From positions 1-61,182 of the forward strand of contig CAIMEL010000008.1 in the NCBI GenBank assembly GCA_903840015.1: a stretch of DNA of 61,182 nucleotides. Direction: 5' to 3'. The notes under the pieces were generated by a model, which was not told where the DNA came from, ran no database searches, and worked only from the letters and a program-made list of their open reading frames with translations. Positions 22,035 to 37,042 of the stretch are shown piece after piece (positions within the stretch are counted from its first letter, which is position 1; each line of letters starts with the position of its first letter). The position numbers were made by a program, and so were the translations under genes. The stretch comes from an uncultured bacterium. Its GTDB lineage: Bacteria > Patescibacteriota > Dojkabacteria > SC72.

Positions 22035-22037
22035 AGG

Positions 22038-22111
22038 AGTCCTCGATGGGATTTGAACCCATAACCTTACCCTTACAAAGAGTATGCTCTACCGGGTTGA
22101 GCTACAAGGAC
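22038..22111 (-). tRNA. tRNA-Thr(UGU), followed by CCT rather than CCA
   Basis: Acceptor GTCCTTG/CGAGGAC; anticodon arm TACTC-ttTGTaa-GGGTA. Confidence 0.93.
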
Positions 22112-25642: not shown

Positions 25643-25719
25643 GGAGTGGTAGCTCAATTGGTTAGAGCATCTCACTGTCACTGAGAAGGTTGCGGGTTCG
25701 AGTCCCGTCCATTCCGCCA
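25643..25719 (+). tRNA. tRNA-Asp(GUC), CCA encoded
   Basis: Acceptor GGAGTGG/CCATTCC, G73, CCA; anticodon arm TCTCA-ctGTCac-TGAGA. Confidence 0.96.
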
Positions 25720-31019: not shown

Positions 31020-31160
31020 AACGCTAGCATATATAAAATAGAACGAAGAGAGTATATACCTAAGTATAGGAAAATCAAAGGGAGATAGATAGAATCAAAT
31101 TAACAAGTCTTCACAACACTTTTTTTTTAGTCATATATGTAATATAATCACAAGAACCTT

Positions 31161-33368
31161 ATGGAAACAGACATGCCAGAGAAAAACGAAATAGGTCCTA
31201 GCTGTAGCGAATCTTTCACTACAACAGCAGAACAAAGACAACAACTCTCCTCAGAACTATTTGAACACGCATATAATATCTCCCACAGTGAAGACGATAT
31301 CTTTCTATGTGGAGAGACTGTTTCATCACTAATCACAGGAGCAGAAGACGATCAATCACGCTTTACCTTTTTAGGCGATTTCTATATAGAAGAAATCGCA
31401 AAAAGATATGGCTGTGAAATTACAGAAGAAGGCAGGGTAACTGTTGAAGAAGAAGGAAAGATGTTTGAGTTCATTGCAAGAGAAACATTCGAGAGAGAAT
31501 TCCAATCCTCACATCCATCTGAACGAATTCTCATGAGTAGAGATGGCGGGATAATAGACTATTTTAGAGATATTACCAATTTAAGTAAGGAAGAAATAGA
31601 AGAAATCTTTTCAGACAAACCTGTAAAGATTTTAGCTTTAGAAGCAATTGAAAGAGTTGGTCAACAGGTAAGAACAAATGGTTGGGTAGCAAAAGTTAGA
31701 AATCACGGTTCTCTTGTATTCATAGATCTCAGAGATTTCTCTGGAACAATACAATTAGTGCTAGACAAAGGAAGAGTACCTTTTGCAGACAAAATTGGTT
31801 TAGAGTATGTACTAGAAGCAAGAGGTTTAGTTAAAAAGCGAGAGGAAGGATACGAAAACCCTAAGATTCCAACAGGAGAAATTGAAATTGATGTTCAAGA
31901 TATTAGAGTTCTTAACGAATCCAAGACACCACCATTTCCTTTAGACAAAAGTGGAGAGAAGACCGATGAGAATTTGAGATTAGAGTACAGGTATATTGAT
32001 ATAAGGAGAGAGGCAGTAAGAGAGTTGATAGAAGCAAGACATAGACTTTTGATGCAGACAAGACTATGGTTTGATCAAAACGGTTTTACTGAAGTACAAA
32101 CTCCCCTACTTACAGTAAGTTCTCCAGAGGGAGCAAGAGACTATCTTGTACCAAGTAGACTTTACAATGGAGAATTCTATGCACTTCCACAAGCTCCACA
32201 ACAGTACAAACAGTTACTAATGGTCGGTGGAATGCATCGATATTTCCAAATTGCACCATGTTTCAGAGATGAAGATCCTAGAGCAGACAGACATTCAGGA
32301 GAATTCTATCAAATCGATGCAGAATTCTCATTCATAACTAGAAATGAAATTTTTAGAACTATTGAACCTTACTTTTTAGAAATAGCAAAGAACAGCAAAG
32401 ACAGAAGGTTACTACAGTACAGATTCCCTCGTATTCCATATTCTCAAGTCATTGAAGATTACGGCTTAGACAAACCTGACTTAAGATTTGAGATGTTACT
32501 AGTGGATCTTACAGAAGAATTTAGATCTTCTGAGATGCAGATATTCCAAGCTTCACCTTCAGTAAGAGCTATTGCTGTAGATAGGGAATTTACCAAAAAA
32601 GAGATTGAGGAAATTACAGAGAGAATGAGATTAGAAGGTGCAAAAGGATTAGCTTGGTTTTCATTGGATGAGGGACAGTTTGGTGGTAATATGGCCAAAT
32701 TCTTTAATACTGAATTACAAGAGTCAATCCTCAAGAAACTAAAAGCGAAAGGATACAGTATTAAAGGCAAACAAACTATTTTTGCATTCTCAGATGAATA
32801 TCCAAAAGCATCAAAATATGCAGGATTACTAAGATCGCAGATGGGTGATTTACTCAAATTAAAAGATCCAACTGTATTAGCATTTGCATGGGTTGTAGAT
32901 TTCCCAATGTTCGAATGGGATGAGAAGGGTCAGAAATGGGACTTTGGACACAATCCTTTCTCAATGCCAAAAGGTGGATTAAAAGCCTTAAGAACAGAGA
33001 AACCAGGAGAAATATCAGCAGAGCAATTTGACTTGGTATGTAATGGTTATGAACTTGCAAGTGGTTCCATTAGAAATCATGACCCTAAGACATTCATAGA
33101 GGCATTTAAAATTGTAGGATATTCAGAAGAAGAAACAAGATCTAGATTTGGTCATATGATTTCTGCATTTGAATACGGAGCTCCACCACACGGAGGATTT
33201 GCTATTGGATTTGATAGATTTATGATGTTGCTCTACGGTATTACAAATATCAAAGATGTATATGCATTCCCAAAAACAAATGCAAAGGAACTCATGACAG
33301 GAGCACCAAGACGTGTACCACAGGAAGATCTAGATGTTTTGGGAATTACAATCAAGGGGAAAAAATAG
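31161..33368 (+). CDS. aspS: Aspartate--tRNA ligase (likely non-discriminating) with ~155-aa N-terminal extra domain
   Basis: GWVAKVRNHG..FIDLRD, PEGARDY, LPQAPQQYKQ, FRDEDPRADR, GYELASGSIR, GAPPHGG; His in RNHG and Gly in EEGYEN match ND-AspRS. Confidence 0.93.
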   Translation: METDMPEKNEIGPSCSESFTTTAEQRQQLSSELFEHAYNISHSEDDIFLCGETVSSLITGAEDDQSRFTFLGDFYIEEIAKRYGCEITEEGRVTVEEEGKMFEFIARETFEREFQSSHPSERILMSRDGGIIDYFRDITNLSKEEIEEIFSDKPVKILALEAIERVGQQVRTNGWVAKVRNHGSLVFIDLRDFSGTIQLVLDKGRVPFADKIGLEYVLEARGLVKKREEGYENPKIPTGEIEIDVQDIRVLNESKTPPFPLDKSGEKTDENLRLEYRYIDIRREAVRELIEARHRLLMQTRLWFDQNGFTEVQTPLLTVSSPEGARDYLVPSRLYNGEFYALPQAPQQYKQLLMVGGMHRYFQIAPCFRDEDPRADRHSGEFYQIDAEFSFITRNEIFRTIEPYFLEIAKNSKDRRLLQYRFPRIPYSQVIEDYGLDKPDLRFEMLLVDLTEEFRSSEMQIFQASPSVRAIAVDREFTKKEIEEITERMRLEGAKGLAWFSLDEGQFGGNMAKFFNTELQESILKKLKAKGYSIKGKQTIFAFSDEYPKASKYAGLLRSQMGDLLKLKDPTVLAFAWVVDFPMFEWDEKGQKWDFGHNPFSMPKGGLKALRTEKPGEISAEQFDLVCNGYELASGSIRNHDPKTFIEAFKIVGYSEEETRSRFGHMISAFEYGAPPHGGFAIGFDRFMMLLYGITNIKDVYAFPKTNAKELMTGAPRRVPQEDLDVLGITIKGKK

Positions 33369-33369
33369 C

Positions 33370-34653
33370 CTACTTTAATCCTTTCAATGCAGCTTCGACA
33401 TCCATTGGCCTAGCTTTGGGATAATTGCATATATACTTTCGAATATCTCTAGATGCTACCGGATTTTTTGCGATATATAGGTATATATTTCTCCAAGCGA
33501 AATCGGTATAGAGCTCTTGAGCTTTACTGTCATCAGAGTAACATATCAATCTCCAAAGGGTCTTTGCCTTAACACTCGTATTATTAGCAATTCCATACAA
33601 AACATACCAATCATATGGATTATGCAATGCCAAAGAATCAAGTAATTTCGAATCATTTGTCGCATATGCCGCAACCACTCGACATATCTCTCCCCTATTT
33701 AGAACACTATCTTTCAAACAAACTTTTTTACTACTCTCCAAGAAAACATCGTAAAGGTAATTCACATCCTGAGGATCTAACTCCTCACATGCCATATCCA
33801 AGGCTATTTTCTTAAGGGAATCATACAGCAACAACGCGAACTTTTTGTTATCCCTCAAGGAGAGAAAGAGTTCTTCCTTTGTAATCATAAGATCTTTAAC
33901 AACTCCCCCTATCAGTTCCTCCTCTAAAACATAAACTTCCTTCTTTGCAACCCTCTGAAGAGAATTCCTTATACCCAACAAAACATCAAAACTTTCAATA
34001 GCCTTTTTCACTATCTTCTCATCTAAAAATCGATTAACACTAAGATATTCAAATGCATCAACAGTACTATATATATCAAAATCCGACTTTATATAGTTGG
34101 CAAGAAGATGTACAAAACCATAGTACTTTATTCTACCCTCTCCAAATTTGATATTTCTATCATTAAACATATTTGGATATGCGAATTCTAAATTAGCACA
34201 AATATGAAAAATCTCGCGAAGATTATTTCTCGAATCCTTCCGAATCTTTTCTGCCATCTTCGTATTATGATACCCATACTCTTTACGCAAGAAGAGCAAC
34301 GCTTGTCTATCCGTACCATCGATCTGAGCCAATCTCTGTAATTCTCTAATTGTATAAACTTCCAATATATCTAATCGATGAGATGGTAAGAGATACTGAA
34401 CTTCCTTTTTAAAGAGTTCAATCTTTCTCTTTGAGGGTCTTTTACTTAAAATTATCAAATCCAAATCAGAAAAAGGGCCCATCTCTCGACGAGCTACCCC
34501 ACCCCAAGAGAAGAGTGAGTAATCTTTTCCTTCAAAATACTTTTTAAAAATATTTAAACATACAGACAACACATGTTCTGTAATATTCTTTGATTCCTGT
34601 ATTCCTGAGATTCTACTATCAGTTTTATACAATTGATTGTCCACCATCAACAA
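33370..34653 (-). CDS. GlnD-like nucleotidyltransferase lacking HD/ACT domains
   Basis: WGGVARREMGPFSDLDL (GG.x.R...SDxD), NIKFGEG, SFDVLLGIRNSLQ; helical-repeat tail (IANN.., IAKNP). Confidence 0.75.
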   Translation of the reverse strand: MLMVDNQLYKTDSRISGIQESKNITEHVLSVCLNIFKKYFEGKDYSLFSWGGVARREMGPFSDLDLIILSKRPSKRKIELFKKEVQYLLPSHRLDILEVYTIRELQRLAQIDGTDRQALLFLRKEYGYHNTKMAEKIRKDSRNNLREIFHICANLEFAYPNMFNDRNIKFGEGRIKYYGFVHLLANYIKSDFDIYSTVDAFEYLSVNRFLDEKIVKKAIESFDVLLGIRNSLQRVAKKEVYVLEEELIGGVVKDLMITKEELFLSLRDNKKFALLLYDSLKKIALDMACEELDPQDVNYLYDVFLESSKKVCLKDSVLNRGEICRVVAAYATNDSKLLDSLALHNPYDWYVLYGIANNTSVKAKTLWRLICYSDDSKAQELYTDFAWRNIYLYIAKNPVASRDIRKYICNYPKARPMDVEAALKGLK

Positions 34654-35368
34654 CTATATCAGCCCCATGAATATATGAGGCTTTAGGGGAAATTAAAAAC
34701 TCTACAATACCTGCTATATCTTTTGGCAAACCTAAACGACAAAGAGGGATACGACTCTTTAAGAAATCCGTATCCTCATACTTTTTCAACATCTTTTCCC
34801 TATTCCTATCAACAAGAATACAACCAGGAGAAATACTATTTACCCTTATATTGTATTCCCCAAGTTCAGTGGCTAATACCCTTGTCAGAGAAGCTATTGC
34901 ACCTTTGGTTGAAGCATATGCCGTCTGACCTTTAATCCCCAAACGAGCACTTATGGATGCAATATTAACAATATTACCCTTACCCAATTTTTTCATTTCT
35001 GGCACTACTGCCCTTGAGAAAAGGAAATATCCTCCCACATTTGATTTAAAGGTATTTGTGAAAATATCATACTCGGTTTCTTCTACATTGAAATATGGAA
35101 CAACACCAGCACAATTCACCAAAGTATCAATCTTTTTGTATTTCTTGACTACCTCTTTAACAAAAGATATTACATCCTCTTCAACTCCACAGTCTAATTT
35201 CCTGACAAAAAGCGTCGCTTTCTTGAAAACGGATTTAATCTTGAGAATTCTTTCATTATTGTCACAAAGACACAATACATTTCCACTCTTATCAAGACCC
35301 TTGGCTATTCCAGATCCTATACCTCCAGCAGCACCTGTTATTATGATGACATTATTTGAAGTTTTCAT
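34625..35368 (-). CDS. Classical SDR oxidoreductase
   Basis: TGAAGGIG, LVNCAG, IASIS, YASTK, RVNSISPG, VDGG. Confidence 0.93.
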   Translation of the reverse strand: MKTSNNVIIITGAAGGIGSGIAKGLDKSGNVLCLCDNNERILKIKSVFKKATLFVRKLDCGVEEDVISFVKEVVKKYKKIDTLVNCAGVVPYFNVEETEYDIFTNTFKSNVGGYFLFSRAVVPEMKKLGKGNIVNIASISARLGIKGQTAYASTKGAIASLTRVLATELGEYNIRVNSISPGCILVDRNREKMLKKYEDTDFLKSRIPLCRLGLPKDIAGIVEFLISPKASYIHGADIVVDGGQSIV

Positions 35369-35798
35369 TTTCTATCTCGAGAATCTTTTCTATTTTAACT
35401 TTTGAACCTTCATTTATCGCATATTCCTTAACCCAGGTTTCAACAATACTTTTCGCATCCTCTATTCCTGTTGTTAATGCACCCAAGGTCAATATGTTTG
35501 CGTCATTGCTTGAGCGAGATTTTAATGCTGCATAGACACTATGACAAAGTGTTGCACGAATACCCTTAATCTTATTCGCTGAAAGACACATACCCATACC
35601 TGTTCCACAAATTAGAATTCCCCTGCTATCTTTTGTGACAAGCACTTTTTGACACACCTCTTTTGCAACATCTGGATAGTCTGGAAGATTCTCAAAATCA
35701 TCTATCTTCTCCACTTCGTGATTGAGAGATCTTAGATATTCGTATATCGTATCTCTGTAAGTAACACCTGACTGATCAGAGCCTAAGAATATTTTCAT
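35352..35798 (-). CDS. RpiB/LacAB-family isomerase with degenerate phosphate site
   Basis: GSD, DYPD, GILICGTG.G...ANK..GIRA, NDAN..L.LG. Confidence 0.85.
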   Translation of the reverse strand: MKIFLGSDQSGVTYRDTIYEYLRSLNHEVEKIDDFENLPDYPDVAKEVCQKVLVTKDSRGILICGTGMGMCLSANKIKGIRATLCHSVYAALKSRSSNDANILTLGALTTGIEDAKSIVETWVKEYAINEGSKVKIEKILEIENENFK

Positions 35799-37042
35799 AG
35801 TAGGTTTTGTAAATAATTTGAAGTTTTTAAAATATCATAACCTCCCTCAACCGGTTTTAAAATCGCTTCAGGTTCTACATTTGTATGTTCCCTTCTACCT
35901 CTACCTGTAACTACCATATATATTACATCTTCTTTGTTAATCTTGCCTGCCTTTGCTAACTTAACCAACCCAGCAAAAGAGATATATGGACTTTTTTCAT
36001 CTTCGTAAGAAAGCTCCATACCTTCTTTTCTTAGAGCATTCTCGAAAATATCCCTTATACTTTCTACCTCTTCAATACTACTTGATTCTATACTACCGAA
36101 GGTACCATCAACCGCTTGTTTTACAGCAGAAAATGTCTTAAGAGGATTAGTACTCTGTAAAGTCTTTTCGTAAGGAAGTTGAGGAAGCTTTAGATCTTTC
36201 TCCGAAATACTATCTAATCCATTCTGATATGCAGTTGTAATTGTACAGTTGTCATCAACTTGCAGAGCATAAATACGAGGGATTAAATACTTTCTGTCAG
36301 TAATTCCATTCATCTTCATTCTCTTATGCCCTAACAAGAAGCCTAATATACCATATCCACCAGCGATAGTTTGTGCAAAGATAGTTGCATTTGGAACTTC
36401 TTCGTACTGTTCATATGCAATGGTTGCTTTTCCTTCCAATTTCTCATGCATTGGGGCTACTACCTGGATATTATTCTTTGCGGCAAATAGTTTTGCTATG
36501 CTACTCACTTGATTGAAATGCCCATCTACAGCAATAATGTGGATCATATCTCCCAACATTGTACTGTCACACTTTTCCATACAACTTAGAGGCAAAAAGA
36601 AGAAAGTTTCAATACCTGCGCTTTTAGCATATCTACAGTATGCTCTTCCCGTATTACCAGTTGAATGACAAACCATTTTCTTCATCCCCAATTCTTTTGC
36701 TTTACTGATAATATAGGAAGCCTCCCTGTCCTTGAATGTTCCAGTAGGATTCTCTCCTTCGTATTTACAATACAGTTGGGCAAAGTTTAAATATTTCTCT
36801 AGCTCAGGAATCCTTTTTACAAAGGTTCTACCCTCACCTAAAGAAACAATGTTTGAATAGTTGTTTACTGGAAGAAGGTTGAAATAGCGCCACATATCGC
36901 CTCTTTGTAAGTATTCCTCGTTACCCTGCTCGACAGATGATTGTAATTTGTATTCAAGATTTTCTTTTGAGATGAAGGCCGACAAATCTTCCTGATTTCC
37001 ATCAGGATCTAAAAGCAGAAATTTGCTCGCAAAGCCTTCCAT
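35795..37042 (-). CDS. Threonine-synthase-like fold-II PLP enzyme
   Basis: MWRY..LLP, SLGEGRT, KYEGENPTGTFKDR (PLP Lys), STGN, EGKAT, VTGRG. Confidence 0.88.
   Translation of the reverse strand: MEGFASKFLLLDPDGNQEDLSAFISKENLEYKLQSSVEQGNEEYLQRGDMWRYFNLLPVNNYSNIVSLGEGRTFVKRIPELEKYLNFAQLYCKYEGENPTGTFKDREASYIISKAKELGMKKMVCHSTGNTGRAYCRYAKSAGIETFFFLPLSCMEKCDSTMLGDMIHIIAVDGHFNQVSSIAKLFAAKNNIQVVAPMHEKLEGKATIAYEQYEEVPNATIFAQTIAGGYGILGFLLGHKRMKMNGITDRKYLIPRIYALQVDDNCTITTAYQNGLDSISEKDLKLPQLPYEKTLQSTNPLKTFSAVKQAVDGTFGSIESSSIEEVESIRDIFENALRKEGMELSYEDEKSPYISFAGLVKLAKAGKINKEDVIYMVVTGRGRREHTNVEPEAILKPVEGGYDILKTSNYLQNLL

Follow-up and report, generated by a model that had tools for sequence, protein, structure and literature searches.

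A putative nucleotidyltransferase pseudo-enzyme head at the N-terminus of a Dojkabacteria aspartyl-tRNA synthetase

Why does the aspartyl-tRNA synthetase (AspRS) of an uncultured, symbiont-type Dojkabacteria bacterium begin with some 150 residues of additional protein, and what might these residues do? The gene, aspS, lies in a stretch of 61,182 nucleotides (the window; contig CAIMEL010000008.1 of GenBank assembly GCA_903840015.1) and is a single open frame of 735 codons. An in-frame TAA at 31140-31142 lies upstream of it, so that the ATG at 31161 is the earliest possible start. A first reading made from the DNA letters only (the sequence-only reading) had counted about 155 residues, uninterrupted by a stop, ahead of the anticodon-binding domain, and had taken them for a catalytically dead nucleotidyltransferase (NTase) fold. 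AspRS models and the starts of related enzymes put the number at about 153. NF001750 aligns to residues 164-733 only (681.8 bits against a cut-off of 443, E 6.9e-205, profile positions 15-588 of 590), and the AspRS of relatives open with M-[KEQ]-R-[IV]-L where the window protein has residue ~155, for which reason the ~153 residues before it are regarded as extra. The synthetase part thus begins near residue 154, at the relatives' own N-terminus, and is of the bacterial aspartate--tRNA ligase type, scoring 573 bits with TIGR00459 (cut-off 374) and comprising the Pfam domains tRNA_anti-codon (an OB fold, 170-251), tRNA-synt_2 (the class II core, 269-706) and the GAD insertion (465-530). The first 160 residues match no Pfam or NCBIfam model, and a stretch of this length is not expected to stay open by chance in a genome of 35% G+C. 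The best overall explanation, to which we assign a probability of about three in four, is that a housekeeping AspRS carries the dead head of a tRNA nucleotidyltransferase, kept as a non-catalytic module.

The extension is not peculiar to one assembly. A search of 5.8 billion proteins with residues 1-160 returned two more extended AspRS, of 736 and 744 residues, with extensions 64% and 50% identical to that of the window protein, and a fourth (740 residues, extension 31% identical) was found on contig L063, beside a homologue of a gene that neighbours aspS in the window. The same architecture is therefore present in four assemblies (735-744 residues), in each case as a single open reading frame (ORF) with an identical fusion junction. 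A chimeric assembly is excluded, since these four stem from different samples and from different sources or assemblers (Logan, ENA, JGI). In a codon-level comparison of the orthologues synonymous sites are saturated, the proportion of synonymous differences (pS) being 0.65-0.86. For residues 46-150 of the extension the proportion of nonsynonymous differences (pN) is 0.17-0.29 and the ratio of nonsynonymous to synonymous rates (dN/dS) 0.09-0.22, against 0.04-0.07 in the AspRS body and 0.29-0.69 in residues 1-45, whose N-terminal leader (residues 1-21) is the least constrained part. The extension has thus evolved two to three times faster than the synthetase part, and appears from these ratios to be translated and held by purifying selection. 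The sequence-only reading had named two separate ORFs in orthologues as the finding that would tell against a fusion; each of the four orthologues has instead a single ORF under purifying selection.

Further examples were sought with less success. A metagenome scan with the alignment of the four extensions gave 600 pattern hits, of which none was confirmed. Weak matches in G044 and G108 were rejected as UvrD-like helicases, and another in G095 was rejected because no long ORF is found there.

What, then, is the extension? When its 160 residues were compared by phmmer with 1.8 billion cluster representatives, the sole meaningful match other than to itself was a protein of 648 residues (P0008; E 1.8e-4), matched in one continuous stretch (query 34-154, target 39-163). 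Cadherin, beta-helix, Ig and YHS repeat proteins that also appeared in this search were set aside as compositional noise spread over multiple stretches. Pairwise BLASTP of the extension with P0008 gives E 2e-11 and aligns IFLCGETVSSLITG..RFTFLGDFYIEEIAKRY with LYLCGGSVRNLLTK..DFDFIGNFDIEQIAKDY. Together with P0010 and P0011, P0008 forms a family of 632-650 residues with two tandem PolyA_pol heads, which Pfam PF01743 recognises at 43.5-60.5 bits against a cut-off of 23. Profile comparison by hhalign matches the four extensions to the first head of this tandem-head family at 98.7% probability (E 3.3e-16, 130 columns), and matches that first head in turn to the CCA-adding enzymes of the window's bacterial family at 96% (E 4.2e-9), in an alignment that continues into the neck. 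A joint profile of extensions and tandem heads finds 4wby (E 2.2e-5), 1vfg (6.5e-5) and human TRNT1 (4x4w and 1ou5, ~1e-4) in the PDB; phmmer and hmmsearch of the PDB with the extension alone give no match, and neither does BLASTP of the extension with the genome's own CCA enzyme. Against real heads, HMMER, MAFFT and hhalign arrive at the very registers that the sequence-only reading had drawn by eye for IFLCGETVSSLITG...RFTFLGD and ERILM...GGIIDYF...NL.

These comparisons support the descent of the extension from the catalytic head of a class II tRNA nucleotidyltransferase (the CCA-adding and poly(A) polymerase family). Its nearest relative, as judged from the alignments, is the first head of the tandem-head family rather than the CCA enzyme of the cell. 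Duplication of the cell's own cca gene was considered as a source and rejected, the extension being far closer to the tandem-head family.

The predicted structure leads to the same family. AlphaFold (AF2), supplied with a 16-sequence alignment, models the extension with a predicted local distance difference test score (pLDDT) of 78.3 and a predicted template-modelling score (pTM) of 0.73, residues 21-140 standing at 84-95; a single-sequence run on the full protein gave a pLDDT of 32. The predicted elements are a helix (23-41), strands at 47-50, 67-72, 92-97, 100-106 and 123-125/131-133, and helices at 52-59, 76-83 and 107-114. Their order of helix, strand, helix, strand, helix, two strands, helix, two strands agrees with the published description of the head, a five-stranded sheet joined by two helices (PMC3925840). 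Foldseek against the PDB places class II A-, CC- or CCA-adding enzymes or bacterial poly(A) polymerase in all of the top 35 positions (best E 3e-4, probability 1.00). The NTase fold proposed in the sequence-only reading is thus predicted, by the model as by its structural matches. Conservation among the four orthologues is highest at residues 47-58 and 119-141, the former active-site elements, and an invariant F-x-F occupies positions 102 and 104 on a strand; D133 and L141 are preserved in all of the head domains aligned. The extension is strongly acidic, with a net charge of -23 over 150 residues and an isoelectric point (pI) of 4.3, which puts it below the first percentile of the proteome per residue. 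Real CCA heads of the same bacterial family are likewise acidic, at -10 to -17.

The catalytic features were followed through the four orthologues, using the motif definitions and roles given in PMC2910056 and PMC3925840. The GG of motif A is replaced in the extensions by GE or GD, and RD by SS, or by AD in L063, the most divergent orthologue. The DxD pair that binds metal reads RxT, GxT or KxL, with DxT in L063 and RxT in the window protein. Motif B, whose RRD serves ribose recognition (PMC2910056), reads PSE, PKE or PRG. About nine residues are deleted where the flexible loop, with BxA, sits in CCA heads. The third catalytic carboxylate falls, depending on the alignment, at the invariant T94 or at position 103, where the four orthologues have E, D, T or N, and no acidic residue is invariant at the three metal-ligand positions. 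The head ends after IIDYF..D...L, exactly where the neck would begin, and a 12-residue linker then leads into the AspRS OB fold. The neck with its motif D (EDxxR, the template for the base; PMC2910056), the body and the tail are absent from the extension. A canonical nucleotidyl-transfer site could hardly be formed from what is left and, with the motifs, loop, neck, body and tail gone, the extension would be incapable of adding nucleotides. The alignments thus bear out the sequence-only reading both in the loss of the DxD and RRD residues and in its view of the NTase fold as catalytically dead. Because the catalytic motifs are missing and the Pfam model finds nothing, in spite of the homology, the extension is best filed as a putative pseudo-enzyme derivative, outside the class of class II heads.

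Features of the fusion gene and its surroundings in the window (residue numbers are those of the fusion protein)
Feature	Coordinates	Strand	Remarks
Fusion gene, putative pseudo-NTase head plus bacterial-type AspRS	31161..33368	+	735 aa; stop included in coordinates
N-terminal leader, residues 1-21	31161..31223	+	low model confidence
Putative degenerate class II tRNA-nucleotidyltransferase (PolyA_pol-type) head, residues ~22-141	31224..31583	+	
Motif A remnant, residues 47-74 (IFLCGETVSSLITGAEDDQSRFTFLGDF)	31299..31382	+	among the two best-conserved stretches
Motif B remnant and IIDYF..D...L element, residues 119-141 (PSERILMSRDGGIIDYFRDITNL)	31515..31583	+	
Acidic linker, residues 142-153 (SKEEIEEIFSDK)	31584..31619	+	low model confidence
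Canonical bacterial AspRS body: OB-fold anticodon-binding domain, class II core, GAD insertion	31620..33368	+	
Four-gene module, overlapping genes, convergent on the aspS 3' end	33370..37042	-	
PALP enzyme	35795-37042	-	module gene
RpiB-like isomerase	35352-35798	-	module gene
SDR	34625-35368	-	module gene
GlnD-like nucleotidyltransferase (NTase)	33370-34653	-	module gene
tRNA-Asp(GUC), cognate substrate gene	25643..25719	+	own CCA encoded

The cell does not depend on the fusion protein for CCA addition. Its genome (680 kb in 25 contigs, 96.6% complete) has an intact cca gene on contig C21, with GG, RD, DYD, RRD and ED..R all in place; this real cca gene, which the sequence-only reading had proposed to locate, is the only one found when the genome is searched with PF01743. 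The fused enzyme is the single AspRS of the genome, and in a tree its body falls within the radiation of the AspRS of the bacterial family. In this 96.6%-complete genome no asparaginyl-tRNA synthetase (AsnRS) was found, the asnS model matching only AspRS itself and the lysyl-tRNA synthetase, both below cut-off; at that completeness the absence of AsnRS is probable. Since AsnRS was not found, whereas gatB (502 bits) and a gene for tRNA-Asn(GUU) (on C24, without encoded CCA) are present, the fused enzyme is probably a non-discriminating AspRS that also feeds the amidotransferase (GatCAB) route.

Of the window's six tRNA genes only those for Val-UAC and Asp encode CCA, which leaves four without it, as the sequence-only reading had it. 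Over the whole genome CCA is encoded in 17 of 44 tRNA genes and the other 27 need its addition. The tRNA-Thr(UGU) gene at 22036-22111 (-) has CC followed by T after the discriminator base, a partial CCA.

How widely is the extension spread, and what accompanies it? Among all 120 species-representative genomes of the order it occurs in one, that of the window; in genus and family the usual AspRS is a plain enzyme of 584-616 residues. The NTase of the four-gene module that converges on aspS likewise occurs in one of the 120 genomes, the same one. The extended aspS genes of the window, L055 and L063 all have the module as a neighbour, though in L063 it is inverted with respect to aspS. In a maximum-likelihood tree of AspRS bodies the group (P0003,(window,P0002)) is sister to (G096,(G056,L063)), with supports of 100/99, 96/95 and 86/87, so that the extension-bearing AspRS are not monophyletic and G056 and G096 are nested among them. 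These two have no extension, and the module NTase was not found in them even at E 1. Their AspRS (on L007 and L010), the nearest to the extended ones, have N-terminal leaders of about 20 residues, for example MKQDKANIKKEIQKPT, which align loosely with the KEEIEEIFSDKP linker; this hints that the leaders may be remnants of a lost domain, and at loss rather than independent gain. The extension is thus co-inherited with the adjacent PALP-RpiB-SDR-NTase module.

Over all contexts examined, the module adjoins AspRS-type genes in five of seven. In L065 it stands beside two archaeal-type AspRS-like genes of 425-428 residues, in a larger, biosynthetic-looking cluster that also has genes for sugar modification, radical SAM enzymes and methyltransferases. 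The module of L069 has no AspRS beside it and lies on a mobile-element-like stretch among relaxase-, TraG- and FtsK-like genes, surroundings that suggest mobility of the module. In L070, where the neighbouring AspRS is canonical, the 585-nt gap upstream of that gene was found to hide no extension. The gap itself (L070:5243-5826, between module NTase and AspRS) is G+C-rich and free of ORFs, and might hold a leader RNA such as a T-box. In this small sample, therefore, the association of AspRS with the module is general, and the extension is specific to one clade, in which it tracks the module.

The explanation that we favour can now be put more fully. A head of about 120 residues would have become fused to the N-terminus of the cell's single housekeeping AspRS. 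It would have kept its polymerase-beta-like fold and lost the nucleotide-binding GG turn, DxD, RRD, the flexible loop, neck, body and tail, and would be preserved by purifying selection as a non-catalytic module that may act as a binding or docking domain beside the anticodon-binding domain. Several points weigh against this account. Direct comparison of the extension with canonical CCA heads by hhalign gives E 0.04-0.1, which is not significant although the register is correct, and PF01743 has no match in any of the four extensions, even at E 10. The proposed homology is transitive, because the direct comparison falls short of significance, and would hang on one intermediate family of three sequences. 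The AlphaFold input alignment held real CCA heads, so that the model and the Foldseek matches are not independent of the sequence evidence. As to the loss of catalysis, the third catalytic carboxylate is placed by the alignments at either T94 or position 103, with certainty for neither, and in the L063 orthologue RD still has its Asp and DxD one of its two. Few lineages underlie the co-distribution with the module, the AspRS tree may differ from the species tree, and the key node has support of 86/87. The module also stands beside ordinary, unextended AspRS in other phyla (L070, L071), which implies that it does not need the extension. Finally, no module is seen on L056, one of the contigs with an extended aspS, although this contig measures only 5 kb.

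What would such a domain bind? We tentatively suggest, as the likeliest single role, that the extension couples AspRS to a protein or a product of the co-inherited module; autoregulation, other kinds of regulation and stability share the probability that remains among possible roles. A bolder form of this idea, in which the head docks or senses for the PALP-RpiB-SDR-NTase module and Asp-AMP or Asp-tRNA is channelled into an undescribed aspartate- or nucleotide-derived product, seems improbable. If it were true, the pathway would be anchored on a synthetase in the manner of the transamidosome or of SepRS-SepCysS, and the occurrence of the module beside AspRS in distant lineages would reflect the same chemistry. 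Alternatively, the dead head may be a tRNA-binding appendage, a use that the sequence-only reading had proposed beside a regulatory one. It would then retain some of its ancestor's hold on the acceptor end, keeping a tRNA end or a second tRNA in place, aiding the capture or retention of tRNA-Asp or tRNA-Asn, or passing tRNA on to aminoacylation once CCA has been added. The head is fused to the N-terminus of the anticodon-binding domain, which in known bacterial AspRS-tRNA complexes is far from the acceptor end; this tells against the idea, as do the extreme acidity of the extension (-23, pI 4.3), the deletion or change of the loop and of BxA, by which the 3' end is contacted, and the absence of the body and tail from which CCA enzymes derive their tRNA affinity. 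Moreover, close relatives function without the domain, and tRNA-Asp already encodes its CCA. In its favour, the ancestral domain contacts the 3' end of tRNA, the class II head stacking on the top of the acceptor helix (PMC3925840); conservation is concentrated at residues 47-58 and 119-141 and in the F-x-F at 102/104; AspRS of other genera in the family have gained a C-terminal tRNA_edit domain that acts on the tRNA 3' end; and CCA must be added to the products of 27 of the 44 tRNA genes. The charge and the position beside the anticodon-binding domain argue mildly against simple tRNA binding, and we regard this account as doubtful.

The remaining alternatives concern whether the extension is functional, inert or real at all. 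It could be the neutral relic of a fusion accident, or could be bypassed by an internal start such as M125. This would suit the plain AspRS of most relatives, the invariance of M125 in all four orthologues, the lack of a recognisable ribosome-binding site at either candidate start and a promoter and terminator scan at chance level. The frame has nevertheless stayed open in four assemblies at 31-64% identity, with synonymous sites saturated and dN/dS of 0.09-0.22; a stop stands directly upstream of the first ATG; the conserved positions make up a confidently predicted domain; and M125 takes the place that a conserved Met/Leu has in the NA(M/L) element of real heads, which provides a structural reason for its invariance. 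A relic or a bypassed extension is thus very improbable. Equally hard to credit is a domain that is still an enzyme, transferring nucleotides by a non-canonical site, with AspRS itself, tRNA or a small-molecule product of the module as possible acceptors. The Asp residues kept in L063, an acidic residue at position 103 in two of the four orthologues and the tandem-head relatives, which have DxD without RRD, would be in keeping with residual activity; in the window protein, however, DxD has become R and T, GG has become GE, RRD and the flexible loop are gone, and so is the neck that forms the base-recognition pocket with EDxxR (motif roles from PMC2910056), while the four orthologues have no invariant acid at the three metal-ligand positions. 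There is, lastly, the suspicion that the similarity to NTase heads is spurious, or the fusion a chimera of assembly, which draws on the lack of any match for the extension by itself in Pfam, NCBIfam or the PDB sequences and on the clearly compositional noise among the other representative-search matches. It is effectively refuted by a P0008 match that is continuous over 120 residues, significant against 1.8 billion sequences and of E 3e-16 at profile level, by a register that is the one expected from the motifs, and by the same junction in four assemblies from different samples and sources.

How does this compare with known systems? The best structure and profile matches, all of homologous fold, are PF01743 heads, among them the Aquifex aeolicus A-adding enzyme (4WBY, 1VFG), the Thermotoga maritima CCA-adding enzyme (3H3A) and human TRNT1 (4X4W, 1OU5). 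They share with the extension the order of elements, in which a helix leads to the turn of motif A, followed by the NA(M/L)-type strand and then by IIDxF..G..DL; the extension differs in being a head only, fused to a synthetase instead of to a tRNA-binding body. With the tandem-head family (P0008, P0010, P0011) it has 25-28% identity over ~120 residues, and both have a short loop region and no RRD, the family reading NND there. In that family, however, GG, R[DN] and DxD are kept, and a neck-like helix follows; a second head and a C-terminal domain of ~160 residues are present with no synthetase, whereas the extension has one head and then AspRS. The tandem-head family is rare and has been found in metagenomes only, and both of its heads have DxD and lack RRD. 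No P0008-like gene is present in the window's genome, and a scan of 185,579 species-representative genomes for the family returned only ordinary Bacillales CCA enzymes. One tandem-head gene (L054:209-2155) adjoins a gene for a DHH/DHHA1 phosphoesterase.

Other synthetases have also acquired additional domains. Eukaryotic AspRS have N-terminal extensions, such as the lysine-rich one of yeast; these are short and basic, for the most part helical or without structure, and hold tRNA by electrostatic attraction. The window extension is at the same end of the same enzyme, ahead of the anticodon-binding domain, but is predicted to be a folded domain of ~120 residues with a net charge of about -23. 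Within the same bacterial family several AspRS carry a C-terminal tRNA_edit domain (YbaK-like, PF04073; L018:1516-3396 and L017:1435-3735, with E 2.9e-25 and 6.4e-21, and also L019-L024), those of the L018 type also being without the GAD insertion. This domain likewise comes from the biology of the tRNA 3' end, but it is at the opposite terminus, has another fold, is detected by Pfam, is presumably catalytic and is absent from the extension-bearing proteins. AspRS seems to be a hot spot of domain accretion in this family. A synthetase that uses pieces of CCA enzymes non-catalytically is known in bacterial glycyl-tRNA synthetase (GlyRS), whose beta subunit has body and tail domains related to those of archaeal CCA-adding enzyme (bioRxiv 10.1101/2023.05.29.542759); there the pieces are a tRNA-binding class I body and tail, universal in bacterial GlyRS, whereas here it is a class II catalytic head on the AspRS of a tiny clade. 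Utp22 is a ribosome-biogenesis factor with an inactive CCA-adding-enzyme-like fold (PMC3794860), and resembles the extension in having lost catalysis and in serving as a binding scaffold; it differs in being eukaryotic, class I-like, full-length, free-standing and engaged in pre-ribosome assembly.

Full-text literature searches turned up no AspRS or other synthetase with an NTase head, in agreement with the statement of the sequence-only reading that an AspRS of this architecture was not known to it. Appended domains as such are already known in aminoacyl-tRNA synthetases, to which they give new partners and functions, but bacterial examples are few. What is new is a pseudo-enzyme head in this position, with a narrow distribution: a catalytic polymerase head that would have been stripped of its chemistry and re-used on a synthetase. 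Even if its role proves modest, bacterial GlyRS would be joined by a second synthetase that is made in part from pieces of CCA-adding enzymes. Such fusions are probably under-counted, because standard domain libraries miss the head. The extension persists under purifying selection in a genome of 680 kb, in which one would not expect much dispensable sequence to survive. It comes and goes with a four-enzyme module, itself undescribed, that recurs beside AspRS genes in unrelated lineages, and for this reason the fusion gives that orphan module a testable handle. On the 5-kb contig L056, an ORF of 113 residues (L056:1310-1651) that resembles a minimal nucleotidyltransferase (..YYLSSSGLHYILG..YDIDIF..) lies directly upstream of the extended aspS.

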